DNA of 64,000 nt, from the NCBI GenBank assembly GCA_023229865.1, contig JALNYL010000001.1, positions 87,008-151,007 of the forward strand, written 5' to 3'. The notes below the pieces were generated by a model, which worked only from the letters and a program-made list of their open reading frames with translations, ran no database searches and was not told where the DNA came from. The translations under genes and the position numbers were made by a program. Each line of letters starts with the position of its first letter. Within the stretch, counting starts at the first letter, position 1. The stretch is from Minisyncoccota bacterium. Lineage in GTDB: Bacteria; Patescibacteriota; Minisyncoccia; Phycocordibacterales; UBA1550. Below, one piece after another: positions 4,311 through 33,081 of the stretch.

Positions 4311-4349
4311 AAAATCCCGCCGTCGCAAGACGGCGGGATTTTTGTTTTT
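4311..4349 (+). terminator. Intrinsic terminator after csp
   Basis: aaATCCCGCCGTCgcaaGACGGCGGGATttttgtttttt: a 12-bp GC-rich stem followed by a U-run. Confidence 0.8.
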
Positions 4350-4404
4350 TGCTATCCACAGATATTTACTCCCCTTCACAAAGAAAGCAGTGTATAATAA
4401 GAGT

Positions 4405-7400
4405 AACTATCCTATGTACACTTCAACACACAAAACAAAAATAAAATTATTCGCAATCATTTTCCCTGTTCTCTTCTTTGTTTTGTTAAACGTGCAAACA
4501 ATACACGCACAAGAAGTGGCGACGAGCACAGAAAAAACTTCTGTTCTCTTTCTTGGTAATAAAAATCTTGCTCCCGTAATCTCTCTCAACAGAGAAACTC
4601 CCAATGGGGTAGCGATTGATATCGTTAGAGCAGTTTCTCAATACATCTCTCTTCCTGTGGATATACAAACAGCGGATTGGGCAGAGGCACAAAAGCTCGT
4701 CGCGGAAGGAGGCGCTGATGCGCTTATTCAAATAAACCCCACCGAGGAGAGAAGAAAAATTTATGATTTTTCTGGACCTCTTCTTGAAACCCATATCAGT
4801 GTTTTCACGCGCACAGCACAAGGGGTCCAAAATATTGAGAGTTTGCACAACCTCAGGGTTGGGGTCGAGGCCGGCGGACTCCCCGAGCAACTCCTCAAAG
4901 AACATCCAGGGGTGCTGAATCACTCGGAAATAACTCTCGTCTTTATCGAAAATTTCCTCGATGGATTTAATCTATTAAAAAACGATTCTCTAGATGCTGT
5001 TGTTGTCGATGAGCGTGTGGGTAAATACATTCTTGCAACAAACAACATTCGAGGAATAAAAATATCAGGAGACCCTATTTATTCTTCTTATTCCGCCATT
5101 GCAGTAAAAAAAGGAAATGAATTACTCCTCAATGAAATCAACGAGGGGCTGCAAAAAATAAAAGCCGATGGGACGTATCAAAAAATATTAGACTCTTGGT
5201 CGGCGCAGGATGTTATTTTCCAAACACAAGAAGAAGCAACTCAAGAAATCTATCTCATCACTTCCGTAACATTAGGTGGACTCCTTCTTGTTACTATCAT
5301 TTGGGTAATCGCCATAAAAATACAAATCGGAAAAAGAAGATCTCTAGAAAAGCACGAGGCGGAAATCCAAAAGGAGCTACAAAGAAAAGATGTAAATCTT
5401 CATCAATCAATGGAGACCGCGCGTGATGGTGTCATTGTGATGGGAGCTGATGGTACGGTTACTTTTTGGAACAAAGCAGCTGAACAGATTTTTGGATACA
5501 CAAAAGAAGAAGCTATTGGCAGAGATCTTCATCGTCTCATTGCTTCTCCTGAGGACCAAGCTGTTTTCAAGGAGCGTTTCCATAAGTTCCTCGCCACAGG
5601 AGATGGTCCTATTGTAAATGTCGTACGCGAACTCACTGCAATCCGCAAAAACGGTGAGCAGTTCCCTGTTGAGCTTTCTGTCTCCGCTTCAAAGATTGAC
5701 AGTGGGTGGATCGCGACGGGTATCGTGCGCGATATCTCTGAGCGCAAGAAAGCTGAAAACGAACTTAAGGCTACTACAAAAAACCTCAATGATGCCCAAC
5801 GAGTAGCACGTATCGGAAGCTGGGAGCTTGATATCAAGACTAATAAACTTATTTGGTCCAATGAGATTTTTGAGATTTTTGAGATTGACCAAACAAAATT
5901 TGGAGCAACCTACGAGGCGTTTCTTGATGCTGTTCACCCCGAAGACAAAGATGCGGTGAGTCAGGCATACACAAACTCTCTCAAGACTAAGGAGTCCTAC
6001 TCTATCGACCATCGCCTCCTCATGAAAGACGGGCGCATTAAATATGTGCACGAAGAGTGCACGACACATTACGCAAGCGACGGGACCCCGCTTCGTTCTG
6101 TTGGCACCGTCCAAGACATCACCGAGCGCAAAAAAGCAGAACTTGATATTTCAAAAAAGAGTCGCGCTCTTCGCATGTTGAGCGATACCAACAATGCACT
6201 TATCCACGCCGACAACGAAAAAGAACTCCTTGATCAAGTTTGTGAAATCATGACAAAGGAGGGTGGATATCGTCTTGTGTGGATTGGAGGAATTGAACAC
6301 GACCAAAATATGACTATTCGCCCCATGGCACAAGTCGGATTTGAGGATGGTTACCTCGAATCACTCAACTGGAGCTGGGGAGACACCGATCGCGGGCAAG
6401 GCCCCGAAGGTGTTGCCGCGCGCACCAACGCTCCCATTATTGTTCATAATATTGCAACAGACCCAAAAACATTTCTTTGGCACGAAGATGCAAAAGAACG
6501 AGGATATCAATCTCTTGGGGTTTTCCCTATTGCTGACGACAAGGGCGCTTTTGCTGTCATGGGAATCTACGCAGGAGAACCAACTGCGTTTAGTGAAGAC
6601 GAGATTGAGATTCTTAAAGAAATGACCGATGACCTAGCTTTTGGCATTACCACTCTTCACGAACGAAAAGAACATGAACTAGCTGAAGAAAAATTCACAG
6701 CAACATTCCACGCGTCCCCCGATGCGATGATCATTGTAAGACTTTCAGACAATAAAATCCTCGATGTAAATGAAGCATTTTCGCAAATTCTAGGGTACGC
6801 GCACGATGATGTCGTAGGAGGTTCCACCAATGATTTCCCTGTCTGGGTAGATTCCGCAGATCGCAGCACTTTCGAAAAAACCATTGCCGAAAAGGGAACG
6901 ATTTCTGGTTTTGAAACTCCCATGAGAAAAAAAGATGGTGGCGTCATCGAGTCCCTCGGCTCAGCAAGAACCATTGATATCAATGGAGAAAAGTGTATCT
7001 TGTCGACAATTCACGACATCACGGAACGCAATCGCACAGAAAAACAGCGTCTCGCAAATCTTAAGTTTATCGAAAATACCAATAAGATAAACCAAGTAAT
7101 TCAAAAATCTACCGACTTTGAACAAACGATGAGCTCGGTGCTTGATGCAATGCTCTCTATTTTTGGCAGCGACCGTGCATGGCTTATCACTCCATGCGAT
7201 CCATGGTCCCTCCATTATCGCGTGCCAATGGAAAGATCCAGACCAGAATACCCTGGAGCATCTGTCTCAGGGATGGATGTCCCTGTCGACCCTGATACAA
7301 CGATTCTTTTTCAAAAGACACGTGCGACCGATGGCCCTGTTGTCTTTAACTCAGAAACCGACCCTCCCCTTCCCCCGGAAATCACCAAACATTTCCAGGT

Positions 7401-9588
7401 TCAATCACAAATTGTTATGGACATCTATCCGAGAGTTGGAGAATCTTGGATGATTGGTATGCGCCAGTGTTCTTATGAGCGCGTATGGACAGAAGAAGAA
7501 AAGAGACTTTTCCAAGAAATTGGGCACAGAGTTTCGGACGCACTCACTAGTCTTCTTATTTCTCGCGACTTGAAAAAAAGTGAAGAAAAATACCGCAGAA
7601 TCATTGAGACCTCAAACGAGGGTATCGCAATCCTCGACAAAGACCGCAAACTTACTTTTGTAAATACGCGATTTGCAAAGCTCCTTGGATACGAAGAGAG
7701 GGAGATGCTCGGAGAAAAATTTGATGCTTTTCTTGCCCCTTCTGACCTCGCCGATCACGAACTTCAAATGAAGGCACGCCGTGAAGGAAAGTCGAGTTTT
7801 TACGATCGACAATTTGTTCATAAAAACGGAAATATCATATGGTGTAGTGTATCAGCCACTCCTCTTTTTGATGACAAAGGAGAATTTAATGGCTCTTTCG
7901 GAATGTTTACCGACATCACCGAACGCAAGAAGGCTGAGGAAGGCCTCCAGGAACAAGAACAATATTCGCAATCCCTTCTTCGTTTCTCGCGCAAGGTTGA
8001 GCAGTCACAAATGTATGGCGAAGTACTAAAAGCGGCGCAGGAAGAAATTAAAACCGTCCTTGGATATAACAATGTGTGGGCATACCTTGTAGATGCCGAT
8101 AAAAAATATGCACATTCTATTGCAGCAGTGGGCTCTACGTCTGAAATGGTTATGTCGGAAGAGTTTTCAGCAACCCTTACTATCACAGGAGACCCCATGC
8201 TTGAAGCAATCGCCTCCGCAAAGGAGATCGTGATAGTCGCCGATGCAATGACAGACCCCAACGTGAACAGAGAGATTGTGGAGAAAATGAAGAACAGAAC
8301 AATCGTGAATGTGCCGATTATTCTCTTTGATCGCAATCTCGGGAGTGTTGGGATGGGGACCTTTGGCGACGAGGGGGTACGCGTCCCAACCCCTGACGAG
8401 GAAGATTTCTTGATTGCGATGGCAAGCCATATGGCTGTCGGTTTTGATCGTATTCGTCTCCTCGCAGAGAGAAAGAAGACTGAGGAAATACTACGCAGAA
8501 ATGAGGAGCAACTTGTAGAGGCGCAGCGCGTCGGGCACTTTGGAAGCTTCGAGTGGGACGCAAGAACTGATACTGCTATTTGGTCAAAGGAATTCTATCA
8601 TATCTACGGAGTTGATCCGTCACTCCCCGCTCCTCCTCTCCAAGACTATCTAAAACTATACACCCCAGAGAGCGCAGCTATTATGACGAAGGCCGTAGAA
8701 ACGATAGTAAAAACAGGAGAGGCATACAGCCTGGACCTAGAACAAGTGCGACCGGATGGCGCCAGAAGGTGGATACATCTTCAAGGAGAAGCGAAGTATG
8801 ACGAACAACATAATTTTATTGGGGTACGTGGGACGGCACAGGATATTACAAAAGCAAAAGAGGTAGAGCGAATGCGTGTCGACTTCCTGTCGCTTGCTTC
8901 ACACCAGCTCCGCACACCGCTTTCAGGCACCAAGTGGCTCATTGAAACACTTGAAAAAGAGCTTCCTGGACCACTTACGACAGGACAAAGAGAGTACCTC
9001 GAAGAAATCTACAAGATCAACGAGAGAATGACGCGCTTGGTTTCTGATATGCTCGTCGCGCTCCGCGTCGACAGTAGTGAATCGGTACTTGTCAAAAAAC
9101 CAATCTCTATACCACAGTTGTTTGATGACCTTATGCTGAGTGTAAAAGCGGCAGCGGCAAGCAGAAAGATCACCATCAGGAGTAGGACTTCGGAACATTC
9201 TCTCCCTCAAGTAGAGTCTGATATGAATTTCTTGAGCATTATTCTAGGGGCGCTCATGGCCAACGCCATCAACTACTCCCCAGAGGGCGCGGAAATTGTG
9301 TTTGACGTAAACGAAGAAGAAAATGGTGCAGTGCTCAGTGTGCAGGATTTTGGGATCGGAATTCCTCAAGAAGAACAAGCTCATATATTTGAGCGCTTCT
9401 TCCGTGCTGTTAACGCAAAAATGATACGCCCAGAAGGTACGGGGCTTGGATTATATATCGCCAAAATGATTGCTGAAAAATTGGGCGGCACAGTGACATT
9501 TACCTCAGAACCAGGGAAAGGTTCCACCTTCTCTCTTCATATCCCCAACCATAACGCCACGGTCAAAGCAGAGGCTCCCACACAATAA
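4405..9588 (+). CDS. Giant multi-sensor histidine kinase: signal peptide, periplasmic solute-binding (SBP family 3-like) domain, TM, multiple PAS and GAF domains, HisKA, HATPase_c
   Basis: Start moved to MYTSTHKTKIKLFAIIFPVLFF (signal-peptide-like). A periplasmic amino-acid-binding-like region is followed by a TM helix (IYLITSVTLGGLLLVTIIWVIAI). Repeated PAS/PAC blocks carry DITERKKAE linkers. H-box LASHQLRTPLSGTKWLIETL; G-box GTGLGLYIAKMIAEKLGG..GKGSTF. Confidence 0.85.
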   Translation, partial: NYPMYTSTHKTKIKLFAIIFPVLFFVLLNVQTIHAQEVATSTEKTSVLFLGNKNLAPVISLNRETPNGVAIDIVRAVSQYISLPVDIQTADWAEAQKLVAEGGADALIQINPTEERRKIYDFSGPLLETHISVFTRTAQGVQNIESLHNLRVGVEAGGLPEQLLKEHPGVLNHSEITLVFIENFLDGFNLLKNDSLDAVVVDERVGKYILATNNIRGIKISGDPIYSSYSAIAVKKGNELLLNEINEGLQKIKADGTYQKILDSWSAQDVIFQTQEEATQEIYLITSVTLGGLLLVTIIWVIAIKIQIGKRRSLEKHEAEIQKELQRKDVNLHQSMETARDGVIVMGADGTVTFWNKAAEQIFGYTKEEAIGRDLHRLIASPEDQAVFKERFHKFLATGDGPIVNVVRELTAIRKNGEQFPVELSVSASKIDSGWIATGIVRDISERKKAENELKATTKNLNDAQRVARIGSWELDIKTNKLIWSNEIFEIFEIDQTKFGATYEAFLDAVHPEDKDAVSQAYTNSLKTKESYSIDHRLLMKDGRIKYVHEECTTHYASDGTPLRSVGTVQDITERKKAELDISKKSRALRMLSDTNNALIHADNEKELLDQVCEIMTKEGGYRLVWIGGIEHDQNMTIRPMAQVGFEDGYLESLNWSWGDTDRGQGPEGVAARTNAPIIVHNIATDPKTFLWHEDAKERGYQSLGVFPIADDKGAFAVMGIYAGEPTAFSEDEIEILKEMTDDLAFGITTLHERKEHELAEEKFTATFHASPDAMIIVRLSDNKILDVNEAFSQILGYAHDDVVGGSTNDFPVWVDSADRSTFEKTIAEKGTISGFETPMRKKDGGVIESLGSARTIDINGEKCILSTIHDITERNRTEKQRLANLKFIENTNKINQVIQKSTDFEQTMSSVLDAMLSIFGSDRAWLITPCDPWSLHYRVPMERSRPEYPGASVSGMDVPVDPDTTILFQKTRATDGPVVFNSETDPPLPPEITKHFQVQSQIVMDIYPRVGESWMIGMRQCSYERVWTEEEKRLFQEIGHRVSDALTSLLISRDLKKSEEKYRRIIETSNEGIAILDKDRKLTFVNTRFAKLLGYEEREMLGEKFDAFLAPSDLADHELQMKARREGKSSFYDRQFVHKNGNIIWCSVSATPLFDDKGEFNGSFGMFTDITERKKAEEGLQEQEQYSQSLLRFSRKVEQSQMYGEVLKAAQEEIKTVLGYNNVWAYLVDADKKYAHSIAAVGSTSEMVMSEEFSATLTITGDPMLEAIASAKEIVIVADAMTDPNVNREIVEKMKNRTIVNVPIILFDRNLGSVGMGTFGDEGVRVPTPDEEDFLIAMASHMAVGFDRIRLLAERKKTEEILRRNEEQLVEAQRVGHFGSFEWDARTDTAIWSKEFYHIYGVDPSLPAPPLQDYLKLYTPESAAIMTKAVETIVKTGEAYSLDLEQVRPDGARRWIHLQGEAKYDEQHNFIGVRGTAQDITKAKEVERMRVDFLSLASHQLRTPLSGTKWLIETLEKELPGPLTTGQREYLEEIYKINERMTRLVSDMLVALRVDSSESVLVKKPISIPQLFDDLMLSVKAAAASRKITIRSRTSEHSLPQVESDMNFLSIILGALMANAINYSPEGAEIVFDVNEEENGAVLSVQDFGIGIPQEEQAHIFERFFRAVNAKMIRPEGTGLGLYIAKMIAEKLGGTVTFTSEPGKGSTFSLHIPNHNATVKAEAPTQ

Positions 9589-11372: not shown

Positions 11373-11765
11373 ATGAACCATGTATTAATTGTAGAAGATG
11401 AAGATTTCCTCGTTCGCGCACTCAAGGATAACCTCGTTTCTGAGGGGCACAGCGTCGCGGTCGCTATGGATGGCGAAGCAGTATTTGATGAGCTTAAAAA
11501 GAAGAAGCCCAATCTTATTTTGCTCGACCTTCTCCTCCCTAAGAAAAATGGGTTTGATGTTTTGAAGGAGATTCGCCAGAGCCCTGAGTGGCAGCTCATC
11601 CCGGTAGTCATCCTCTCAAACCTTGGTGAAGACTCAGAAATAAAAAAAGCTCTTGAACTCGGCGCCAATGACTACTTCGTAAAGTCACAGCATCCTATTC
11701 AGGAAGTTATCGAAAAAGTTCGTGAGTATCTCGAAGGAAAGGGGTCAACAAAGGTAGGGCTGTAA
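11373..11765 (+). CDS. Stand-alone response-regulator receiver domain (CheY-like, no output domain)
   Basis: VLIVEDEDF..LILLDLLLPKKNGFDVL..DYFVK. The Asp pocket, phospho-Asp and Lys positions are conserved, and the product is 130 aa. Confidence 0.85.
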   Translation: MNHVLIVEDEDFLVRALKDNLVSEGHSVAVAMDGEAVFDELKKKKPNLILLDLLLPKKNGFDVLKEIRQSPEWQLIPVVILSNLGEDSEIKKALELGANDYFVKSQHPIQEVIEKVREYLEGKGSTKVGL

Positions 11766-11773
11766 GGAGAACA

Positions 11774-11827
11774 AGAAAGAGGACACGTCGACTTTGTCGA
11801 CGTGTCCTCTTTCTTTTGCCTTTTTTC
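11774..11827 (+). terminator. Strong intrinsic terminator ending the kinase-kinase-receiver operon
   Basis: A 20-bp perfect stem, AAGAAAGAGGACACGTCGAC tttg GTCGACGTGTCCTCTTTCTT, followed by ttgcctttttt. Confidence 0.8.
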
Positions 11828-11946
11828 CCTTGTGCATACAAGCAAATTCACGGTATATAGATTACTACATACCGTCGGCACTCGGACGTTGTGCAAGAGT
11901 AATCTCTTGCACGCGCTCCTCGTTTGACGGTATAATCATCTTATAA

Positions 11947-14900
11947 ATGTCTGTGATTTTCTCAAAGCCTGTAAAAGTATTTTTTATCATAACACTCACA
12001 TTGTTTGCAGTTTTCTTTAGCCAGAATATTGCTCTCGCAGCCGTCGCTCACGACGTTGCGAGCGAGAGTCACGCAGGCACCACAGGCTCAACCAATCAAT
12101 CTTCTTTTTCTTGGACCCACACACCCTCAGGGACCCCGCGTGGCGTACTTGTATTCGTTCATACAGTTAACGACATTAAGAGAGTGACGGGCGTAACCTA
12201 CGGCGGAGTAACAATGACAGAAATAGCAGGCGGCGCAGCAGTAGATGCTAATGGCGAACAAGGCCGCATTGATACATTCTTTCTTGGTACAAGTATCCCC
12301 ACAGGAGCACAGACAATCGTTGTCAGTAGGACAAATAACGGCGATGAGATGTACGCTTCTGCTTCTACACAAACCGCACTTGCCAATACTGAAATCTACA
12401 CCGCAGGAATTGTCCTCCTCCAAGAAAGTGGATCATACACAGTTCAGTCTGTCACGGACGGGAGCACGGGGTCAAATAGTCTTCGCTATGCTTCAGGATA
12501 CTATGGAGGGAATAACGCACTTTCCGCAGGGACAGGAAGCACTGTGCTCAACAGTATCGACTACGGGAGCCAGACAAGCACAACAGCGCGAGAAACAACT
12601 GCTGGGCAAGGAGCACGTAACGTTGGTTTCACTTCAACATCAGATGACCGAGCAGGTGTTCATCTCGCCGTCCGTGAAATCCCCGCTGTCCCCACCGTCA
12701 CCACCCCTACCGCGACTTCCATCACAACATCAGGGGCAACACTCGGCGCCAATGTCACATCGCTTGGCATCCCCGCATCAATCTCTGCACGTGGTACATG
12801 TTGGGGTACATCACCAAGTCCTGTGACTAATTGCTCCGCTGAGGGCGGAACAACAACAGGAGTCTTCACTCACGCACGTACAGGAATGAACTCGAATACA
12901 CTCTACTACTACCGCGGGTATGCGACAAATAGTACAGGGACGGGTTACTCAGCTGACGGGACGTTCACAACACTTGCTATTACGGGATCAGTATCTGCTT
13001 CCCCTTCGACCTGCACCATTTCATCTGGCGCAAGTACATGTACCGTGCCGTTCACATGGAGCATCACCAATGCATCTTCTCCAAATCTCTATAATGCAAC
13101 CACGGCAACAACATACTCGACATCAGCATCAGGGACAGGAGTTTCGTTTGCTATTACCAATGGATCAAACACGGTGCAGGCACGCAACAGCAGTACAATA
13201 CTTGCGTCTACTTCGGTGACGGGTAGTTGTACTCTAGGGACTTCATGGAACGGGAGTATATGTGCAGCAACCCCCGCTGTCCCCACCGTCACCACTCCTA
13301 CCGCAACCTCCATTACTACATCGGGGGCAACACTTGGCGCAAACGTAACTTCCCTCGGTGTCCCTGCGTCAATCTCTGCACGTGGTACATGTTGGGGGAC
13401 ATCACCAAGTCCTACTACGAATTGTGTTGCGGAAGGTGGTACCACGACGGGAGTCTTTACCCACGCACGTACAGGAATGAGCCCTAGTACGCTGTATTAC
13501 TATCGTGGCTACGCAACAAATAGTACAGGAACTGGTTACTCGACTGACGGGACGTTTACCACTGCAGCTCCCCCTGCAAGCGGGACTGTTTCTGCTTCGC
13601 CAACTTCCTGTACTATCTCGTCAGGATCAAGCACCTGCAATATTCCGTTTACTTGGAGTATTTCAAATGCCACTTCTCCCAACCTTTACAATGCGACAAC
13701 CGCAAATCAATACTCAACATCAGCATCAGGAACAAACGTCTCTTTCCCTATAACCAACGGATCAAACACGGTACAAGCGCGTGACAGCAGTACGGTACTT
13801 GCATCTACTTCGGTGACGGGTAGCTGCACTCTAGGGACGTCATGGAACGGAAGTGTGTGTTCTCCAAACCCAGTCACAACGATCGCCGACGGAAGCAATC
13901 CTTCAAATACAACTCTCGCCCCTAGTGGAGCAGTGACAGATCTTGATGTCTTTACCCTCACCACAAGCACGGGGAGCGACACCGTAACCGCGCTCACGGT
14001 GACATTGGTCCCTACCGGTGCATTCAATAACATTGCTCAAGTCGATCTCACTGACAACAGCAATCTCGCACGCTGTACTGCAGTGACAAACCCAGGAAGC
14101 AACACAATTTCTTTTTCATCATGTAACTCAAACGGTGGTGTCACCGTCACAACAAGTGCGACAACGTACAAGGTACGCATCACACCAAAAACTCACGCCA
14201 ACATGCCCGCCCCCGCATCGGGAGCAAGCTATGCGACGACCGGCACCGTGACTTCATTTACAAGCACCAACACGCAAGCAGGGACAGACTCTGGTAGTGC
14301 GACGATAACCATCGACAACCTCTCCCCTGCTAATGTCACGAGCGCAAGCGGGAGCGCAGGAGACGCGCAAGTAACCACAAACTGGACAAATCCCGTTGAT
14401 GCGGATTTTCATAGTACAATCGTCCTCCGCCGCGCAGGGACGGCCGTATCTGATACCCCTACAGAAGGAGCAACGTACACAAATGGAAGCACGATTGGCG
14501 CATCAACCGTCGCCTGCGTAGTTTCTTCTCCGACGGCAACCTGTGTTGATGGTAGTCTTACCAATGGTACTGCCTATCATTACAAGCTTTTTAGTAAAGA
14601 TTCCAACGGCAACTATGCTTCAAGCGGAGCAGTACCAACAGGGTCACCATTTACTCCATCAATCACAACGTTTACCATCACCGCAAGCGCGGGGGCAAAT
14701 GGAACCGTAACACCATCAGGAGCAACCGTTGTCGCGCAAGGGAGCTCGCAGCTTTACAATATCACCCCCAACTCGGGATACAATATCGCAACGCTCGTTG
14801 TTGATGGATCTTCTATTGCAACATCGACCACGTACACGTTTAACAACGTTCAACAAAACCACACCATCAGTGCGACATTCGCTCTCATCCCTGTTATTAC

Positions 14901-16350
14901 CTACACCATCACTTCCTCCGCAGGGGCAAATGGTGCGATCTCTCCTTCTGGTGCGACCGTGGTAAACCAAGGAGCAAACCAGTCATACGACCTTACCCCC
15001 GACTCGGGATACAACGTCGACACCCTTACGGTAGACGGTAGCCCTGCGGCAACCTCGACGCCATACACCTTTACCAACGTACAAGCCGATCACACTATCA
15101 GTGTCACCTTTATTGCTATCGTCGTTCCCCCGGGATCATTCATCATCAACGCTACCGCAGGCGCAGGCGGAACGATCAACCCCCTCGGCTCAACACTCGT
15201 GACGCAGGGGACAAATCAGTTATACACTATCACTCCTGATTCAGGATACAATATCGCGACACTTACCGTTGACTCTGTCTCAGTAGCGACATCAACAAGC
15301 TACACCTTTACTAACGTACAAACGACCCACACTATCGACGCTACGTTCGTCGCCATTCCTCCCCCACCAGGATCATTCAATATCACCGCAAGCACAGGAG
15401 CAAACGGATCGATAACCCCGTCAGGTATCACCGCAGTAACGCAAGGTGCTTCACAAGCCTACACGATTACTCCCGATTCGGGATACGATATCGCAACGCT
15501 CGTGATTGACGGCTCGTCGGTCGCGACATCAACAAGCTACACCTTTACCAACGTACAGGCAGCACATACCATCAGCGCGACATTCGTAGCGATTTCAGGG
15601 ACATCGTCGACTCCGGAGTCAGGAGCTTCTCGCCCAACGACTATTACTTTTTTTGGGAAAGCCTTCGCGGGAGGCAAAGTCTCCATCGCAAACAAACTCT
15701 TGAGCACACAAAGCCTCATAGGACAAGAAGTAACCCCGGGCACTGATGGCTCATTCCGCATTTCATTTGTGGGGATCCTTCAGGGACTTCAAAGTTTTGG
15801 ACTCATTGCAAAAGATAAAAATGGCCACACGTCGCAGACAAAGTTTTTCTTTTTTGACACAACATCAGAAGGATTTGTTGAAAAAGAATTATTGCTCCCC
15901 CCAACGATTGATATCCTTTCTGGGCAAGTAACTCGTGGAAAGAGTGCGACCGTAGTCGGTTTTGCGTCTCCCAACAATAGCGTTGCCCTCTATATAGATG
16001 ATATACTAATACAAGAGGTGCTCGCGGAAAAAGATGGCTCCTATACATTTGGAGCCATCACCGGAGCTCTTAGTTTTGGGCAACACAACGTCAAGGCAAA
16101 ACAAATAAACAAAACTTCAAAAACAGAAAGTGATTTTTCAACAACGCGAACATTCATCGTTTCGCAACTCACCATCACAAAAGCAGACTTCTCGGGGGAC
16201 GGCAAGATAGATATCAAAGACTGGAGCATCTTCCTCTCTCGTTGGATATCAAAAAACCCACTCGAGAGGGAGAGTATCGACATTACGGGGGACGGAAAAG
16301 TCGATATATCAGATTTCAGTATTTTCATTAAAACCATAAGAAAAAAATAA
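11947..16350 (+). CDS. Giant secreted surface protein (1,467 aa): signal peptide, tandem FN3-like/Ig-like modules, four ~83-aa InlB-B-repeat-like beta repeats, C-terminal dockerin (type I-like)
   Basis: Signal peptide MSVIFSKPVKVFFIITLTLFAVFFSQNIALA. A ~200-aa module is duplicated in tandem (PAVPTVTTPTATSITTSGATLGANVTSLG..YYYRGYATNSTGTGYS). Four repeats begin ITASAGANGTVTPSGATVV..YNITP.SGYNIATL.VDG. The C-terminus DFSGDGKIDIKDWSIFLSRWI..DITGDGKVDISDFSIFIKTI forms two calcium-loop dockerin segments. Confidence 0.8.
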   Translation: MSVIFSKPVKVFFIITLTLFAVFFSQNIALAAVAHDVASESHAGTTGSTNQSSFSWTHTPSGTPRGVLVFVHTVNDIKRVTGVTYGGVTMTEIAGGAAVDANGEQGRIDTFFLGTSIPTGAQTIVVSRTNNGDEMYASASTQTALANTEIYTAGIVLLQESGSYTVQSVTDGSTGSNSLRYASGYYGGNNALSAGTGSTVLNSIDYGSQTSTTARETTAGQGARNVGFTSTSDDRAGVHLAVREIPAVPTVTTPTATSITTSGATLGANVTSLGIPASISARGTCWGTSPSPVTNCSAEGGTTTGVFTHARTGMNSNTLYYYRGYATNSTGTGYSADGTFTTLAITGSVSASPSTCTISSGASTCTVPFTWSITNASSPNLYNATTATTYSTSASGTGVSFAITNGSNTVQARNSSTILASTSVTGSCTLGTSWNGSICAATPAVPTVTTPTATSITTSGATLGANVTSLGVPASISARGTCWGTSPSPTTNCVAEGGTTTGVFTHARTGMSPSTLYYYRGYATNSTGTGYSTDGTFTTAAPPASGTVSASPTSCTISSGSSTCNIPFTWSISNATSPNLYNATTANQYSTSASGTNVSFPITNGSNTVQARDSSTVLASTSVTGSCTLGTSWNGSVCSPNPVTTIADGSNPSNTTLAPSGAVTDLDVFTLTTSTGSDTVTALTVTLVPTGAFNNIAQVDLTDNSNLARCTAVTNPGSNTISFSSCNSNGGVTVTTSATTYKVRITPKTHANMPAPASGASYATTGTVTSFTSTNTQAGTDSGSATITIDNLSPANVTSASGSAGDAQVTTNWTNPVDADFHSTIVLRRAGTAVSDTPTEGATYTNGSTIGASTVACVVSSPTATCVDGSLTNGTAYHYKLFSKDSNGNYASSGAVPTGSPFTPSITTFTITASAGANGTVTPSGATVVAQGSSQLYNITPNSGYNIATLVVDGSSIATSTTYTFNNVQQNHTISATFALIPVITYTITSSAGANGAISPSGATVVNQGANQSYDLTPDSGYNVDTLTVDGSPAATSTPYTFTNVQADHTISVTFIAIVVPPGSFIINATAGAGGTINPLGSTLVTQGTNQLYTITPDSGYNIATLTVDSVSVATSTSYTFTNVQTTHTIDATFVAIPPPPGSFNITASTGANGSITPSGITAVTQGASQAYTITPDSGYDIATLVIDGSSVATSTSYTFTNVQAAHTISATFVAISGTSSTPESGASRPTTITFFGKAFAGGKVSIANKLLSTQSLIGQEVTPGTDGSFRISFVGILQGLQSFGLIAKDKNGHTSQTKFFFFDTTSEGFVEKELLLPPTIDILSGQVTRGKSATVVGFASPNNSVALYIDDILIQEVLAEKDGSYTFGAITGALSFGQHNVKAKQINKTSKTESDFSTTRTFIVSQLTITKADFSGDGKIDIKDWSIFLSRWISKNPLERESIDITGDGKVDISDFSIFIKTIRKK

Positions 16351-16351
16351 C

Positions 16352-18028
16352 ATGCTACGCACACTACCCATCAGTATTATCCTTGGAACCATCGCGCTTT
16401 TCGCTCAAACAGCAGAAGCGGCTACCCTCTTCTTCACCCCGGGAAGCGGCGAATTTGGCATCAACAAGGAGATCGTTGTAGATCTCAAAATCGACAGCGA
16501 AGGAGCTGGTATCAATGCAGCACAAGCAACTCTTCGCTTCCCTAAAGACATCCTTGAAGTAAAATCTATCAACAAGACGGATTCGACTTTCAACTTCTGG
16601 CTTGAGGAGCCATCGTTTTCAAATACTGATGGCGTGATTTCATTTGTGGGCGGAACCCCGTACGGTATTTCCGGGGCATCTATCCAGGTACTTCACGTTG
16701 TGTTTACCACAAAGACGGGCGGCACAGCACCCCTCAATATCGTAGACGCGGCGGTGACAGCATCAGACGGTAGTGGTACCAATGTCCTCACCAAGACAAC
16801 CGATGCAACCTTTACGATTTCTCCCGCAAAAACAGCCCCTGCAGTAGTTGTCCCCCCAACACAAATCGTCCGCGAAGCGACACCCGCAGCAGGGCTACCC
16901 ACAACACCAGTATTGAATGTGCCATTCTACGCTGACCCAGCCCTTTGGTATAACCACAGCAATGTCTTTACTGCCTCATGGGAACTCCCTCGCGACGTTA
17001 CGGGAGTTGCAACGACACTCAATAACCAGCCAAATTTCACTCCAAACACAAACGAGGGTCTCTTTGACAACAAGATGTTCCAGCCTCTCGCTGACGGTGT
17101 GTCATATTTGCACGTACGTTTCAAAAACTCAATCGGCTGGGGAGGGACTGCTCATTACCGTATCGCCGTCGACACCAAAGCCCCTGTCCCCTTTGAAATT
17201 ACTTCAAGCGAGGGCGCCACGAGTGACAACCCGGCTCCGACACTCACCTTTGCCTCAAGCGACGCACTCTCAGGGATTCATGAATATCGCATCAAGACAG
17301 ACAACGAAGCATGGATAACTATCCCCTCAAAAGACTTCCAGGGCTCATACAAACTCTCTATTAAAAATCCTGGCACACATCACATTACAATCCAAGCAGT
17401 AGATAACGCGGGGAACAGTATTGAAAACACTCTCAATCACGAAACGCTTGCGCTTGTGTCACCAGTATTTACCTTTACCACAGAAACACTTTTCTCTGAC
17501 GAAACAAAAGGATTAACATTCAAAGGAACAGCGATTCCCTCTACTGAAATTCTCCTCTTAATCAAAAGAGATGGAGCAATTATTGCAAACAGCACTGTCA
17601 ACGTAAGCGCTAATGGGAATTGGGAATTTACTTTTGCAGACCCCCTTCGCAACGGCAAGTACATCGCAACCATTCAAAACAGAGACTCTCGCGGGGCGCT
17701 CTCTCTCGTAGTAACAGCACCAGAAATATCGGTCACAGGTCGTTATACTAACCTGGTTATCGTTCTTCTTCTTGTCCTTATTGTTACCATTATCGCTGGC
17801 TCATGGTTCTATAAGAATCGCCGAGAACGCACTGCGCTGCGTATTCAAATGGCAGAAAGAGACACTGCAAATGTTTTTAAAATGATCCAAGACGATGTCA
17901 AAAAACTCCAAGAGGCCCAAAAGAGCAACACTTCTGTTAATGCTGAGTTTATTGCTGAAAAAATTAACAAGAACGTAGAGAAGATGGGGAAATACATCAA
18001 AGACGAAATCGGTCGCGCAAAGGACTAA
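16352..18028 (+). CDS. Membrane-anchored surface protein with an N-terminal cohesin-like beta-sandwich module, C-terminal TM anchor and cytoplasmic coiled-coil tail
   Basis: A signal peptide is followed by ~135 aa with a cohesin-like pattern (..EIVVDLKIDSEGAGINAAQATLRFPKDILEVKSI..DGVISFVGG..IQVLHVVFTTKTGGTAPLNIV). A TM helix (LVIVLLLVLIVTIIAGSWFY) precedes a charged coiled-coil tail. The start is 2 nt after the dockerin protein's stop. Confidence 0.55.
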   Translation: MLRTLPISIILGTIALFAQTAEAATLFFTPGSGEFGINKEIVVDLKIDSEGAGINAAQATLRFPKDILEVKSINKTDSTFNFWLEEPSFSNTDGVISFVGGTPYGISGASIQVLHVVFTTKTGGTAPLNIVDAAVTASDGSGTNVLTKTTDATFTISPAKTAPAVVVPPTQIVREATPAAGLPTTPVLNVPFYADPALWYNHSNVFTASWELPRDVTGVATTLNNQPNFTPNTNEGLFDNKMFQPLADGVSYLHVRFKNSIGWGGTAHYRIAVDTKAPVPFEITSSEGATSDNPAPTLTFASSDALSGIHEYRIKTDNEAWITIPSKDFQGSYKLSIKNPGTHHITIQAVDNAGNSIENTLNHETLALVSPVFTFTTETLFSDETKGLTFKGTAIPSTEILLLIKRDGAIIANSTVNVSANGNWEFTFADPLRNGKYIATIQNRDSRGALSLVVTAPEISVTGRYTNLVIVLLLVLIVTIIAGSWFYKNRRERTALRIQMAERDTANVFKMIQDDVKKLQEAQKSNTSVNAEFIAEKINKNVEKMGKYIKDEIGRAKD

Positions 18029-18043
18029 CCACACACACAAACA

Positions 18044-18072
18044 ATAATCCCGCCTTGTGGCGGGATTATTAA
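18044..18072. terminator. Hairpin terminator between convergent genes
   Basis: aATAATCCCGCCttgtGGCGGGATTATt, lying between the 16352..18028 (+) stop and the 18079..18501 (-) stop. Confidence 0.6.
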
Positions 18073-18078
18073 TTATAG

Positions 18079-18501
18079 CTATTTTATCTTCTCAGCTTTG
18101 TCTTTACATCCGAGACAACGACAACCATACGGCTTAATATGCTCATCTACATACTCCTTGCCGTAGTCATAGGTAAATTCCTCCCCTGCCGCAATATTCT
18201 TTTTAGCCTGTACAAATACTCGGCCGCCAAAGATTTCTACTTCACAATTAGGCTTGTGAGAGTGATTGATGTAGCGAGCGGTATTTGAGCGCGCACTGCC
18301 ATCAATCATACGAGTCTTACTTGTTTCAAAAAGATAAAGGTTTTCCTTGTATTCTTCTACTTCCTTCTTGCCACTTATAATCTTTCCCACATATTCAATG
18401 ATCCACGTCCCTTTCTTTACAGGTTCTTCGGCAAAAAGCCCGAGCCCCGCACTTGAACGCTTCACTTTATATTTTACATCACCGATTTTTGGAATTGCCA
18501 T
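18079..18501 (-). CDS. SET-domain protein (putative protein-lysine methyltransferase)
   Basis: Carries the SET signatures ARYINHSHKPNCEV (the NHSCxPN motif) and EEFTYDYG (the ELTxDY motif), with a Cys-rich post-SET tail CRCLGCKDK. The product is 140 aa. Confidence 0.75.
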   Translation of the reverse strand: MAIPKIGDVKYKVKRSSAGLGLFAEEPVKKGTWIIEYVGKIISGKKEVEEYKENLYLFETSKTRMIDGSARSNTARYINHSHKPNCEVEIFGGRVFVQAKKNIAAGEEFTYDYGKEYVDEHIKPYGCRCLGCKDKAEKIK

Positions 18502-29334: not shown

Positions 29335-32300
29335 TTAAGGTGTGTAAGAATACGTCATTACAAGATCAGCAGAGTTGATATAAAGCGTCGTGTTCACATC
29401 AGGAGTTACCGTGAGCGTGCTAGGCGTTGCGGTGTTTACCGCATTTACCCTACGCACAAGTTTAAAGAGTCCTCGGTATGTGCCCGATGGCGCTCCAGGG
29501 AGAACATAATTCCCCACCGTCTCGGCTTCATACTGCACGGCGATTTGAGAGTTTAAAGGAGATGCTGTCTCATAAATTCCCGTGAGCACAATGAAAGCGC
29601 TCTTGAGCGAGATATCAGCTTCAGTCGTGGTTGCACTGAACCCATATGACCCTGGGGCACCATTGGTGACAACCCCCGTATCACCAGCAATATGGAACTT
29701 GGTCGTTTTTGCAGGAGAAAGTGTACTTGATGTAGTGAAGGTGGAATTAGCGCTTATCGATTCATTCCCAGCCGCGTCCCTCGAGCGGACGCGGTAGTAA
29801 TACGTAGTCCCTGAGTTAATATTTGAGAGTCCAACGCTATGGGAATTAACAAGAGTTAAGTTGATAGTCGTACAGTCTCCTGCACACGCACCAAAAGTCC
29901 CCGTTGTGTTGTATTGGACCTGGGAAGTCGACACTTCTCCTGAGGTGTTCCATGTGATTGTTGCACTGTTGGTTCCCACACCACTTGAAGCGACGTTTGT
30001 TATGGCGGGAGGTGTGGTGTCTATCTGAAAATCAGTCGACGTCTCTGGATTTACTTCGTCATAAGAAACCCATGGGCCATAATAATTACCAAGACCAGAA
30101 TCAAAGTGCGCACGAGCCTGCCAATGATACACTCCATCAGTAGGGGTTATTGATATTGCACAAGCATTACCAACAACACCACAATCAATGGGACCAGGAG
30201 CAGCCCCAGCAGCAGGGCCAGAAACCGCGTCCACACAGGCGACGTTTGGGGTAACACAAGTAAACGCAGTGCCGATTGGTTTATATTCTATCTCGGGATA
30301 GAGGGTCCCCCCTGAGTTTGCCGTATTTTCTACTATCATGGTGAGATAAATAGGAGTCGAACTTGCTGCTCCTCCCACAGCAATCAATTGCGTAAGACCC
30401 GCGTCTCTCCATTGTTTCAAATTCGTAGGGGCATTTGGTCTCAAAGAGTTCACTGTGAAGAATGCTAGATTTGAAGAAAGGTTATTTGAGGTTATAACCA
30501 CGTCACCACTCACTGAGTTTGTAGGGACCGCTGTTGCGATAGCTGTCGCCGACCAACTCGTAAATACTGTTGCAGTTTTGTTGTTTGTGAATGTCACAAA
30601 ATTACTTGCATCAAAAGCCGCCGGGCAACCAGCCTGACAAAAGTGGTTACCATTTATTGTCATTGCGCCTCCCTCAGATGCATTTGAGGGAGTAAAACCG
30701 GTGATACGGGGAAGGATGCTGATTTGATTACCGTAGGTATGCGACTTGCTATTCGTTCCCGTCCCTTGTGTCATAGTGATACTTCCGCTATTTGTTGCAT
30801 CATTAATAGCCGTTGGAACCTGAACCTGGATAGCAGTGTTTGTCCAAGAAGCCACTGTTGCAGCTTGCCCAATAATGGTTACACTCCCTGTTCCTTGGGG
30901 GCTCCCAAAGCGTGTACCATTGAGCGTAATCACCCCATCTGTATCCCCTGCGCTATATTCACGAGCTTGATCGGCCCCAAGTCCTACGGGTTGAGTTACT
31001 GTAGTAATTTGTGGAAATACGTAAAAATTGAGTGCAGTACTACCTACGCCTCCTGCGGTTATCACGAGCGCACTCGCCCCACCAAACTCTGCTCCCCAAT
31101 CGGTATCAGTGTCTCCCACAACAGAAGAATCTGTCTCAATAACTATTGTTGTTGGTGACCAAGAGAACACATTGGCGTCCGCAATTTGATGTGCGCCTAT
31201 TTTAATATTATTTGTCGCATCTGAACGATTCCCCACACCAGGATCAGCGCCAAAACCAGCACCAGAAATAGTGATTGTTTGCTTAAATCCAGCCCCACCA
31301 CCAATGCGTGCACCACAAGTGGTACAAGCGAGGGCATAACTGAGGACAGGCTCGGTGTCATTCGTATAGCTCGTCAACGTAAGAGGAATTGCTGGGGTAA
31401 ATGGCGACCCAGTAGGCACTGTCCCCAAATCGTAGTTACCACGCAAGTCTTTTGTAAAAATCTCATAATGGTATGCAGTACCATTAACAAGCCCCGAATC
31501 AAGACATGTTGCAGTAGGGTCAAGAACGACACAAGCGACCGTCGCCGTGCCGATAGTATTACCCACAATGTACGTCGCCCCTTCGACAGGACTGTCAGTG
31601 ACAGCACTCCCTGCGCGACGAAGAATGACCACACTATGATAGTCAGCATTCCCCGGGTTGGTCCAGTTGAGAGTCACCTCTCCGTTCCCCACCGTTCCAC
31701 TTGTCCCCGAGACGCTTCCCGAAGAAAGGTTGTCGATGGTGAGCGTAGAGCTTCCCGTATCAACACCTTCATGGATATTAGTACTTGTGAAGGCACTGAT
31801 TGTTGCTGTTGTTGGATAGTCACCACCAAGAGGAGCGGGCATCGCAGCGTGCGAAATCGGGGTTATTTTTATTTTAAATTGCGTATTTGTACTCGTGACG
31901 GGGATTGTACAGCCCGTGAGTGTCGCAGTATCTGCCACAGGGGCCGCACTACAATATGTCACCGTATCGCCATCATTTACAATAGCGACCGTATTGACAT
32001 ATGTCCCAATCCCCGCCGACAAAGGGATGGTAACCCCCGTCACGGTATCGGTACCATAATTAGTAGCGAGCCCAAACGAATCCACGAGTCCCGACGCTCC
32101 AGGAGCCACCGAGGAGCTCCCTGGTTCTCCTGTAACAAAGTTTGAAATAGTCGTGACCGGCTCAGGGCGAATAGCGAGAGCTACTGCAGCCCATGAATCA
32201 GACGTCGACGTCGTCCATCCTGTCCACGCAGCAGCATCTTCTGCTCCTGCCCCACTCCAAGCCTTCGAAGCAATCCCAACAGTCGATGCATTCCCTGGGT

Positions 32301-33081
32301 CAACACTGATGTCGGCCTTATTTATATATCCCGTTGGCTGCGTTACTGTTGTATCAACAGCAGCACCAGTGCCCAAACCAAGAGACAGGACTATTGCCCC
32401 CTGAGTGACGGGAGTTATAATAGGGCTATTGGGCACAGCTGAGTTGGTTGCAACCGCAGTCGTAGAAGTAACATCAAGTGGTGTCGTCTTGTGAGTATTG
32501 CGCCAAACATGCACCTCACACACAGCACCGTTTGTAGCGGACCCACTTCCAAGACAATTTACAAGAGTATCTGGAGTAGCAGGCATGAGCTTCCAGTTCA
32601 CAGAAAAATTGGCATCACGGGTGTCGTTCGCATAAAGATCCGCGACCTCGGTGTACCCAGCTGTCCCCACTCCAGGGTTTCCGTTTGCCGTTGAGACGAA
32701 ACCAGTAGCAACAACAACCAAGTCTCCGGCCTGCGCGGCGCCACCCGAGCCTCCCGTGAGCGCAGTAAGAGACACATTGTACGCAGCACTGTTCCCGCTC
32801 GCCTCAGCAGCACCAACATACTGAAGAGCAGCTGCATGAGCCTCATGAATACGGGCCTTCTCAACAACGTGACGATATGAAGCAAATTTATCAACGACAT
32901 TGTTATCCTGCAACAAGTGCCATGCTTTATCGACAATATTATTTGCCGCAATATAGGAATCAAGAAGTTTCGTTAAAGTATAAAAAGGAATATTCGAAAA
33001 AGAAATACTCAAAATAGCCAGGAACAAAACGCTGTTACGAAAAACTTTGAGTGTCTTTTTTAAGATAGAATTATTCTTCAT
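29335..33081 (-). CDS. Giant secreted adhesin-like protein (1,248 aa) with FN3/Ig-like modules, encoded among minor pilins
   Basis: N-terminal signal/anchor. One FN3-like module (..SATITWNTSGEVSTSQVQYNTTG..YYYRVRSRDAAGNES) and one module paralogous to a domain of the 11947..16350 protein (..LTIDNLSSGSV..NWTNPGNADYHSVVILRRAG..NGTAYHYEIFTKD..). Confidence 0.8.
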   Translation of the reverse strand: MKNNSILKKTLKVFRNSVLFLAILSISFSNIPFYTLTKLLDSYIAANNIVDKAWHLLQDNNVVDKFASYRHVVEKARIHEAHAAALQYVGAAEASGNSAAYNVSLTALTGGSGGAAQAGDLVVVATGFVSTANGNPGVGTAGYTEVADLYANDTRDANFSVNWKLMPATPDTLVNCLGSGSATNGAVCEVHVWRNTHKTTPLDVTSTTAVATNSAVPNSPIITPVTQGAIVLSLGLGTGAAVDTTVTQPTGYINKADISVDPGNASTVGIASKAWSGAGAEDAAAWTGWTTSTSDSWAAVALAIRPEPVTTISNFVTGEPGSSSVAPGASGLVDSFGLATNYGTDTVTGVTIPLSAGIGTYVNTVAIVNDGDTVTYCSAAPVADTATLTGCTIPVTSTNTQFKIKITPISHAAMPAPLGGDYPTTATISAFTSTNIHEGVDTGSSTLTIDNLSSGSVSGTSGTVGNGEVTLNWTNPGNADYHSVVILRRAGSAVTDSPVEGATYIVGNTIGTATVACVVLDPTATCLDSGLVNGTAYHYEIFTKDLRGNYDLGTVPTGSPFTPAIPLTLTSYTNDTEPVLSYALACTTCGARIGGGAGFKQTITISGAGFGADPGVGNRSDATNNIKIGAHQIADANVFSWSPTTIVIETDSSVVGDTDTDWGAEFGGASALVITAGGVGSTALNFYVFPQITTVTQPVGLGADQAREYSAGDTDGVITLNGTRFGSPQGTGSVTIIGQAATVASWTNTAIQVQVPTAINDATNSGSITMTQGTGTNSKSHTYGNQISILPRITGFTPSNASEGGAMTINGNHFCQAGCPAAFDASNFVTFTNNKTATVFTSWSATAIATAVPTNSVSGDVVITSNNLSSNLAFFTVNSLRPNAPTNLKQWRDAGLTQLIAVGGAASSTPIYLTMIVENTANSGGTLYPEIEYKPIGTAFTCVTPNVACVDAVSGPAAGAAPGPIDCGVVGNACAISITPTDGVYHWQARAHFDSGLGNYYGPWVSYDEVNPETSTDFQIDTTPPAITNVASSGVGTNSATITWNTSGEVSTSQVQYNTTGTFGACAGDCTTINLTLVNSHSVGLSNINSGTTYYYRVRSRDAAGNESISANSTFTTSSTLSPAKTTKFHIAGDTGVVTNGAPGSYGFSATTTEADISLKSAFIVLTGIYETASPLNSQIAVQYEAETVGNYVLPGAPSGTYRGLFKLVRRVNAVNTATPSTLTVTPDVNTTLYINSADLVMTYSYTP

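Follow-up and report, generated by a model that had tools for sequence, protein, structure and literature searches.

Cohesin and dockerin modules outside cellulosomes are established (Peer et al. 2009, FEMS Microbiol Lett 291:1, as cited in PMC9012536). Syntrophic anaerobic methanotrophic (ANME) archaea carry dockerin and cohesin proteins that are often multi-cohesin and variable (PMC9012536). In Southlakia epibionticum, SEML1_0315 is an essential secreted dockerin-domain envelope protein of 927 amino acids (aa) (PMC10633639), and SEML1_0315-0318 follow the order PAS kinase, 130-aa response regulator, tRNA-Glu and dockerin protein (supplement of PMC10633639). Neither that paper nor its supplement lists a cohesin partner or an adjacent anchor gene for SEML1_0315. 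In animals, the adhesion molecule TMEM132 combines cohesin and immunoglobulin (Ig) domains with a single transmembrane segment (PMC6030884). Here we report a gene pair found in a 64-kb stretch of contig JALNYL010000001.1 (hereafter the window, meaning the whole stretch), which comes from a Paceibacteria bacterium (Parcubacteria, candidate phyla radiation (CPR)). The first gene encodes a secreted surface protein that ends in a dockerin (the cargo), and the second a membrane protein that begins with a cohesin (the anchor). In the searchable literature on dockerins and cohesins in CPR, Parcubacteria and Patescibacteria, no description of such a cargo-anchor pair was found.

The cargo (gene 1, 1,467 aa) and the anchor (gene 2, 558 aa) are encoded by two adjoining open reading frames (ORFs) on the plus strand, and the coordinates proposed in the initial annotation, 11947..16350 and 16352..18028, were exactly confirmed. 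We consider it likely that the two genes form one operon encoding a one-to-one cohesin-dockerin surface docking pair. Both proteins would be exported via Sec signal peptides. By its predicted topology, the anchor would be kept in the cytoplasmic membrane by a single C-terminal helix and would present its type I-like cohesin at a distance of about 440 residues, carried by a linker and three Ig/FN3-like domains. The cargo would be freed from the membrane, and its C-terminal calcium-binding dockerin would plug into the anchor cohesin, presumably in a calcium-dependent manner. Two conserved Ig-like modules in front of the dockerin probably aid docking, and the cargo would finally be shown at the end of the stalk. 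In this scheme the docking unit, formed by the anchor and a 240-aa cassette of the cargo, is constant and co-diverges, and the exposed head of the cargo is swapped or fast-diversifying, with InlB-type repeats here and RTX, YDG, TIG, BNR, CBM96 or FN3 domains elsewhere.

The C-terminus of the cargo is confirmed by its sequence as a genuine type I dockerin, as had been proposed from the letters alone. In the hidden Markov model search with Pfam Dockerin_1 (PF00404), the isolated 62-aa segment scored 35.4 bits (E 1.3e-8), above the cut-off of 22.9, and the whole cargo scored 22.6 bits, just under it. All of the orthologous dockerin segments (27/27) match Dockerin_1. When a profile of these 27 segments was searched against the PDB, solved dockerins came first, namely 2y3n_B (1e-7), 4fl4_A, 2yik, 1daq and 2mte (E 1e-7 to 1e-6). 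As defined for dockerins, there are two segments of ~22 residues, ~31 residues apart, each with an EF-hand-like calcium loop (D-x-[DNS]-x-[DN]-G-x-[IV]-[DN]-x-x-D) and a helix behind it. The first calcium loop of the cargo reads DFSGDGKIDIKD (aa 1414-1425) and the second DITGDGKVDISD (aa 1445-1456). Among the 27 orthologues, aspartate is invariant at loop positions 1 and 12 in both segments; at position 5, conservation is complete in the second segment and 90% or higher in the first. The two segments are nearly symmetrical, as seen in their DWSIFL and DFSIFI motifs; near-symmetry of this kind is the basis of the dual binding mode of type I dockerins. Across the window in six frames, the strict calcium-loop pattern returned the two cargo loops and, spuriously, one site in an ORF of 80 aa, and the family cohesin profile matched gene 2 only; exactly one dockerin and one cohesin are present. 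The loop pattern is not due to chance.

The N-terminal module of the anchor is assigned as a type I-like cohesin, an assignment settled by the orthologues and the predicted fold. The ~135-aa beta-rich module seen in the initial annotation is real and spans aa 24-157. That annotation had also named, beforehand, the lack of a predicted cohesin-like fold at 16424..16830 as grounds for giving up the pairing, and such a fold is predicted: the AlphaFold2 model of aa 22-162, built from the orthologue alignment, is all-beta, with a predicted local distance difference test (pLDDT) of 81.8 and a predicted template-modelling score (pTM) of 0.79. The model has the features of the cohesin fold, that is, a nine-stranded flattened beta-barrel or jelly-roll of ~140 residues that superposes on solved cohesins. 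In a Foldseek search against the PDB, cohesins occupied nearly all of the top ~47 ranks. The best structural match was the type I cohesin 4ums, with a template-modelling (TM) score of 0.80, a root-mean-square deviation (rmsd) of 2.5 Å and E 1.7e-9, followed by 6kgc, 1g1k and 2vn6. Type II and III cohesins matched less well (TM 0.53-0.71, rmsd 3.9-8.4 Å). Moreover, Pfam Cohesin (PF00963) was detected in 13 of 27 orthologous N-terminal modules, which are 53-80% identical (best E 3.9e-8), and two homologues (P0055 and P0078) carry a precomputed PF00963 match. The most conserved residues of the module (N55, A56 and Q58; F98, G100 and G101; D139, G142 and N144) map to strands 3, 5 and 8 of the model. 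In solved type I complexes such as PDB 1OHZ, this sheet (strands 8-3-6-5) is the dockerin-binding face, and the putative contact residues are nearly invariant.

The pairing of the two genes, first suggested by their adjacency in the window, was strongly reinforced by comparative genomics, which gives the firmest evidence for it. Loci were taken from three long contigs via orthologues, together with 54 loci from one-genome-per-species GTDB contigs. The lineages included are Yonath-, Nomura-, Azam-, Magasanik-, Falkow-, Wolfe-, Uhr-, Harrison-, Lloyd- and Giovannonibacteria. Wherever upstream sequence is available (57/57 loci), the cohesin gene is directly preceded by a gene whose product ends in a dockerin. 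Three of these loci (L019, L039 and L032) were missed by the strict calcium-loop expression, and relaxed patterns with direct reading gave dockerins in all. The distance from the cargo stop to the anchor start is mostly of the kind seen in translational coupling: it is ≤30 nucleotides (nt) in 49/56 pairs, 15 pairs overlap, and a single nucleotide separates stop and start here (...AAA AAA TAA C ATG...).

The same loci separate a constant from a variable part of the system. Across loci, the anchor keeps a steady length of ~550-580 aa, and it has more than 500 full-length homologues of 550-590 aa at 47-69% identity; cargo length ranges from 403 to >2,270 aa. Conservation within the cargo starts sharply at aa ~1228 (RPTTITF...) in an alignment across 50 cargo proteins and covers 240 aa, that is, the docking cassette made of the two Ig-like modules and the dockerin. 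From bin to bin of locus pairs, the identity of the cassette follows that of the anchor (95, 77, 72, 51, 40 and 35%). The regions before the cassette gave no BLAST match in 50% of the pairs at 50-60% anchor identity and in 85% of those at 40-50%. Nine other cargos were scanned, and all end in Dockerin_1; they carry RTX+FN3, YDG+Big_3_5+TIG, Flg_new_2+Big_13, BNR+FN3, CBM96+FN3 or nothing recognisable. A homologue search with the cargo cassette returned 13 proteins. An exhaustive profile search of 1.84 billion cluster representatives gave 3,697 proteins at E≤1e-10, of which 263 reached E≤1e-30, the top matches mostly having the canonical anchor architecture.

Neither a catalytic nor a carbohydrate-active enzyme domain was found by Pfam in these ten cargos, the present one included. 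With a single cohesin on each anchor, this supports a non-cellulosomal use of cohesin and dockerin, in line with what the initial annotation had put forward. Attachment to a partner cell or surface is the most probable role, rather than the breakdown of polysaccharides.

Several points speak against this docking and attachment scheme and should be set beside the evidence above. The earlier claim of a cohesin-like module holds for the fold and for the orthologues, and fails for the window copy in the Pfam search, where no Cohesin match appeared even at E≤1. Against PDB sequences, both the single sequence and the family profile of the module remained non-significant, the best profile match being 7urp (E 0.23), which is itself a cohesin, as the fold search makes clear. 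The cohesin call therefore rests on the predicted fold and the orthologues. EF-hand models match 25/27 dockerin members, which would suit a generic EF-hand-like calcium-binding pair too; EF-hand matches are, on the other side, expected for the dockerin fold. The loci are related by kinship and are not independent, so that synteny among relatives inflates the 57/57 figure; despite this, the linkage survives rearrangement of the flanking genes. Physical, calcium-dependent binding of cohesin and dockerin is inferred, with genomic coupling as the evidence for it. Finally, the attachment role is read from the domain types of the cargos only, and the head domain of the present cargo (aa ~33-245) has no Pfam match at E≤1.

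The positions of all features discussed here are collected in Table 1.

Table 1. Features of the cargo-anchor pair and its flanks (positions in the window; aa numbers refer to the respective protein).
Feature	Position	Strand	Basis or remark
PAS-HisKA-HATPase_c histidine kinase, 578 aa	9597..11333	+	Pfam PAS, HisKA, HATPase_c
Stand-alone receiver-domain response regulator, 130 aa, without output domain	11373..11765	+	Pfam Response_reg only, aa 4-108
Terminator-like hairpin, 20-bp stem then T-run	11773..11815	+	Between response regulator and cargo gene; consensus scan only
Perfect TATAAT hexamer, candidate -10 box	11931..11936	+	10 nt upstream of cargo ATG; read by eye
Cargo gene, secreted dockerin-terminated surface protein, 1,467 aa	11947..16350	+	ORF, Pfam
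Putative cargo signal peptide, aa 1-32, ...NIALA/AVAHD	11947..12042	+	Hydrophobic segment in aa 1-34; AXA site read by eye
Cargo N-terminal head domain, aa ~33-245	12043..12681	+	Without recognisable family
Two copies of a ~590-nt (~197-aa) repeat unit	12678..13871	+	76-82% nt identity; repeat families D2, D3
Four divergent InlB B-repeat (Flg_new_2) modules	14668..15627	+	Pfam Flg_new_2, 4 stretches, E 7.8e-17
Two Ig-like modules, aa 1229-1407	15631..16167	+	With the dockerin, the conserved docking cassette ("X-X-Doc")
Type I dockerin, aa 1408-1467	16168..16347	+	Calcium loops at nt 16186-16221 and 16279-16314, with a (W/F)SIF(L/I) helix after each
Anchor gene, type I membrane protein with N-terminal cohesin, 558 aa	16352..18028	+	ORF; full-length AlphaFold2 model, pLDDT 81.4
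Anchor signal peptide, aa 1-23, ...QTAEA/ATLFF	16352..16420	+	Helix at aa 4-17 in the model; AXA site read by eye
Cohesin module, aa 24-157	16421..16822	+	AlphaFold2 fold, Foldseek, Pfam matches of orthologues
Pro/Thr/Ala-rich linker, aa 158-186	16823..16909	+	Without secondary structure; pLDDT <50 at aa 159-163; length varies among orthologues
Stalk, three beta-sandwich (Ig/FN3-like) domains, aa ~187-275, 283-365 and 372-462	16910..17737	+	AlphaFold2 strands
Single transmembrane helix, aa 465-487, then KNRRER (positive-inside)	17744..17812	+	Hydropathy segment aa 459-489; model helix from aa 466
Cytoplasmic tail, aa 488-558, two long helices	17813..18025	+	Model helices aa 466-523 and 529-557
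G+C-rich hairpin, 13-bp stem	18042..18071	.	14 nt past anchor stop; consensus scan, called on minus strand

As to the cargo, an orthologous head was found in locus L010, and in most other loci the heads are unrelated. Behind the head, the motif PAVPTVTTPTATSITT recurs at aa 246 and 443, marking the two copies of the long repeat unit, whose nucleotide identity suggests that the variable part of the cargo underwent an internal duplication fairly recently. Further downstream, a repeat search found four direct repeats of ~235 nt at 14677-15586 that match the InlB B-repeat region. Tandem Repeats Finder returned no repeats for gene 1, the repeat periods being above its limit. The protein had been described as an FN3/InlB-B-repeat protein: the InlB B-repeats stand (Flg_new_2 x4, E 8e-17), and FN3 is not called by Pfam in gene 1. 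The two Ig-like modules of the cassette give weak Pfam matches in the cargo itself (Big_6, E 3.1e-5; Big_7, E 0.011), and Big_6 and Big_13 are found in homologues of the cassette. As had been noted before, Pfam scans detected no glycoside hydrolase in this cargo, nor any other catalytic domain. A second large surface-type protein is encoded in the window at 29335-33081 on the minus strand (1,248 aa). It has TIG and FN3 matches and no dockerin motif. The cohesin anchor is not used by all of the large repeat proteins encoded here.

Outside its cohesin, the anchor was found to be built somewhat differently from the first proposal. The "second extracellular domain" is indeed an extracellular beta part, but AlphaFold2 resolves it into three beta-sandwich domains after a Pro-rich linker. 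Matches of this stalk include Pfam Big_13 (E 1.8e-13), Big_6 and Big_9 as well as an NCBIfam OmpL47-type barrel (33.9 bits), and Foldseek with the whole anchor model led to strings of Ig/FN3 domains. The single C-terminal transmembrane helix was recovered by both hydropathy and AlphaFold2. The cytoplasmic tail is likewise helical in the model, and its description as a coiled coil can be kept only as one of two possible arrangements, the other being a helical hairpin. Over 40 orthologues, M545 and Y548 of the tail are invariant, and R490, R497, F509, D515, L519, K544 and K550 are at least 90% conserved.

A few rare relatives depart from this architecture. Five anchor homologues (P0142, P0147, P0149, P0150 and P0163) have two cohesins, the same transmembrane helix and tail, and an extra internal hydrophobic segment. 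A distant protein of 2,276 aa (P0207) has nine cohesins and its own C-terminal dockerin and is scaffoldin-like. In P0136 (489 aa), the called ORF runs from the C-terminal cassette of a cargo (calcium loop at aa ~147) into an anchor cohesin (aa 223-361); it may represent a natural fusion, read-through of a stop codon or an error in gene calling. The cargo C-terminus of L038, upstream of 7001, contains an extra, partly duplicated dockerin segment, giving three helix/loop units as against two.

Upstream of the pair lie the genes of a histidine kinase and a response regulator. A histidine kinase on the same strand was found within 7 kb of the pair in 35/40 loci, and a response regulator on the same strand in 37/40, usually ending directly before the cargo gene. 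The gene order is kinase, regulator, cargo and anchor in most loci, and anchor, kinase and regulator in Magasanik/Falkow-type loci, with the kinase directly downstream of the anchor. Because the position of the kinase and regulator differs between locus types, their linkage to the pair survives rearrangement. Receiver-only regulators of 124-135 aa are present in L001-L003 and L039. The linked kinases are mixed: many are soluble, some have short loops and some have extracytoplasmic domains of ~285 aa. The idea that they are uniformly "intramembrane-sensing" kinases, which need an accessory sensor, was ruled out by these mixed architectures, from which no single coupling mechanism follows.

This linkage raises the question of whether the pair is also the extracellular arm of a signalling device, in which contact or a ligand would act through the transmembrane helix and tail of the anchor on the PAS kinase and the receiver. 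Alternatively, the phosphorylated receiver might bind the anchor tail and alter adhesion from inside. Such a function would add to the docking model. It fits the frequencies above and their persistence through rearrangement, the regulator being a receiver domain alone without DNA-binding output, and the conserved 70-aa tail with its two invariant residues, which would be needless in a passive anchor. The same order of kinase, regulator and dockerin protein is found in Southlakia (supplement of PMC10633639). However, the linked kinases are heterogeneous and offer no uniform mode of coupling. In addition, a strong terminator-like hairpin (11773..11815) stands between the regulator and the cargo gene here, which suggests that cargo and anchor are a transcription unit of their own. 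The linkage could equally reflect regulation via an unlinked partner or inherited synteny. We therefore regard a signalling function as doubtful at present.

A bolder form of the same idea, which we put forward as a speculation and think unlikely, is that the conserved set of four genes (PAS kinase, stand-alone CheY-like receiver, cargo and anchor) provides ultra-small symbiotic bacteria with an integrin-like contact device. A partner cell would be engaged by the swappable head of the cargo, and the transmembrane and tail helices of the anchor would couple this contact to the kinase and receiver, outside-in or, to control adhesion, inside-out. Such a device may correspond to the essential dockerin protein near a kinase/receiver pair in Southlakia.

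It was also considered that the complex is a core envelope structure, such as a surface layer or a fibril coat, required for the integrity of the envelope, whose head varies under phage or predator pressure, in place of a partner adhesin. The pair is near-universal across the Parcubacteria lineages, with one copy in the window, and an essential dockerin-domain envelope protein is known from the Saccharibacterium Southlakia epibionticum (PMC10633639). Rapid head turnover is typical of surface-exposed phage receptors as well. Nevertheless, the heads carry typical binding modules (CBM96, RTX, BNR, TIG and InlB repeats) and not surface-layer domains, there is one cargo per membrane stalk with no self-assembly domain detected, and orthology with the Southlakia protein is not established. 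A core envelope structure is thus improbable in our judgement.

A further reading accepts both modules as real but not as partners. The dockerin would bind another cohesin or a cell-wall polymer, the cohesin another ligand, and the adjacency of the genes would reflect co-regulation. Cohesin-like modules with other ligands do exist (the CLIPPER adhesin domain stood at rank 44 of the fold search), and our inspection for partners covered 64 kb of the genome. However, the adjacency in all 57 loci at translational-coupling distances, the co-divergence of cassette and anchor, and the clustering of conserved residues in the canonical binding face and in the two dockerin helices make this reading very improbable. 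Finally, a minimal cellulosome, in which a scaffoldin recruits polysaccharide-degrading enzymes, was rejected as extremely improbable: cohesin and dockerin are the defining cellulosome modules and one relative's cargo bears a CBM96, but no glycoside hydrolase, carbohydrate esterase or polysaccharide lyase domain occurs in this cargo or the nine others, each anchor has one cohesin and no carbohydrate-binding module, and a transmembrane anchor takes the place of SLH domains (no match) or a sortase signal.

As to expression of the docking pair, the TATAAT hexamer shortly before the cargo start was not called in the promoter scan and is weak evidence for a promoter; the -35 region is poor, with no good -35 element found. 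If it is used, the cargo transcript would be nearly leaderless. The hairpin behind the anchor lies between the anchor gene and the convergent gene of a 140-aa SET-domain protein (18079-18501, minus strand; PF00856, E 3.7e-23), and is possibly a terminator shared by the two. L001 and L002 also have a SET-domain gene close to the pair. For a reduced bacterial genome, a SET-domain methyltransferase is unusual. On the other side, the second kinase is directly preceded by a sensor kinase of 1,748 aa (4342-9588, plus strand), which has an extracellular SBP_bac_3 domain, two GAF stretches and several PAS domains. It is very large for a small-genome bacterium.

In public databases, the product of the cargo gene is identical to MCK9344608.1, named "EF-hand domain-containing protein" by NCBI, and that of the anchor gene to MCK9344609.1, named "Ig-like domain-containing protein". 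Both are proteins of a metagenome-assembled Candidatus Paceibacterota genome. The annotation of gene 1 is inconsistent between databases: JGI/IMG has an 805-aa call on the same contig, which clusters with gene 1 and is named "predicted ester cyclase", against the 1,467 aa of NCBI. There is an annotation gap here, in that the public names of the two proteins say only "EF-hand" and "Ig-like".

Parcubacteria and their relatives are a large share of uncultured bacterial diversity and are thought to live attached to other cells. To our knowledge, their attachment proteins are mostly unknown. The pair is a candidate surface apparatus across many of these lineages, consisting of a constant socket and a plug-in protein with a fast-changing head, a pattern expected from host or partner recognition, or from phage evasion. 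For the cohesin-dockerin field, it would add a deep-branching, monovalent and membrane-anchored clade with a conserved double Ig-dockerin cassette, from which orthogonal docking pairs might be drawn. Moreover, given the strong linkage to a kinase and a stand-alone receiver, docking may be coupled to signalling, which, as far as we know, has not been described for a cohesin-dockerin pair. Should the integrin-like device exist, it would be the first such pair wired into signal transduction.

Compared with known systems, the two modules themselves are most like the type I clostridial pairs, such as C. thermocellum CipA/Xyn10B (1OHZ), C. cellulolyticum (2VN5/2VN6) and C. acetobutylicum CaCohA2-Doc0917 (6KGC). 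These gave the best superposition of the cohesin model (TM 0.73-0.80), and the cargo shares with them the duplicated segments of calcium loop and helix that pass Dockerin_1. Sequence identity to solved cohesins is 11-22% only. In contrast to type I clostridial cellulosomes, there are no enzymes here, a single cohesin stands in place of a multi-cohesin scaffoldin, a transmembrane helix with a cytoplasmic tail replaces SLH or sortase attachment, and the partner genes lie in one operon. The X-dockerin (X-Doc) dyads of types II and III (C. thermocellum 2B59/5K39; R. flavefaciens CttA-ScaE 4IU3) have an Ig-like module directly before the dockerin, for which the two modules of the cassette, weakly matched by Pfam and as conserved as the dockerin itself, are candidate counterparts; they also join a large component to a cell-bound cohesin, as is proposed here. 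However, two such modules are found here and one there, and the cohesin of the anchor is without the type II/III insertions, namely the extra helix and the beta-flaps.

The ANME archaea and Southlakia resemble the present bacterium in their obligate association with a partner and in having dockerin proteins at the surface that play no cellulolytic role. With Southlakia the likeness extends to the order of PAS histidine kinase, receiver and dockerin protein; it is a likeness of gene order, the orthology of the cargo not being established. TMEM132 likewise unites a cohesin-fold domain, an Ig-like stalk, a single transmembrane segment and a cytoplasmic tail in one chain. It is eukaryotic and is not known to have a dockerin partner; the comparison is an architectural analogy and not shown homology.

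The non-cellulosomal cases share with this locus the use of cohesin and dockerin outside cellulose degradation, with few modules per genome. The cohesin of Archaeoglobus fulgidus (2XDH, TM 0.73) is among the structural matches of the anchor, as are the toxin-complex cohesins of C. perfringens (2JH2/2VO8/2W1N). Those cases, however, are scattered and lineage-specific, and the modules of C. perfringens serve to join glycoside hydrolases. Here, by contrast, a monovalent transmembrane anchor with a conserved tail is combined with a hypervariable cargo, in an operon that extends across much of a super-phylum and is further set apart by its double Ig-dockerin cassette and its linkage to a two-component system.

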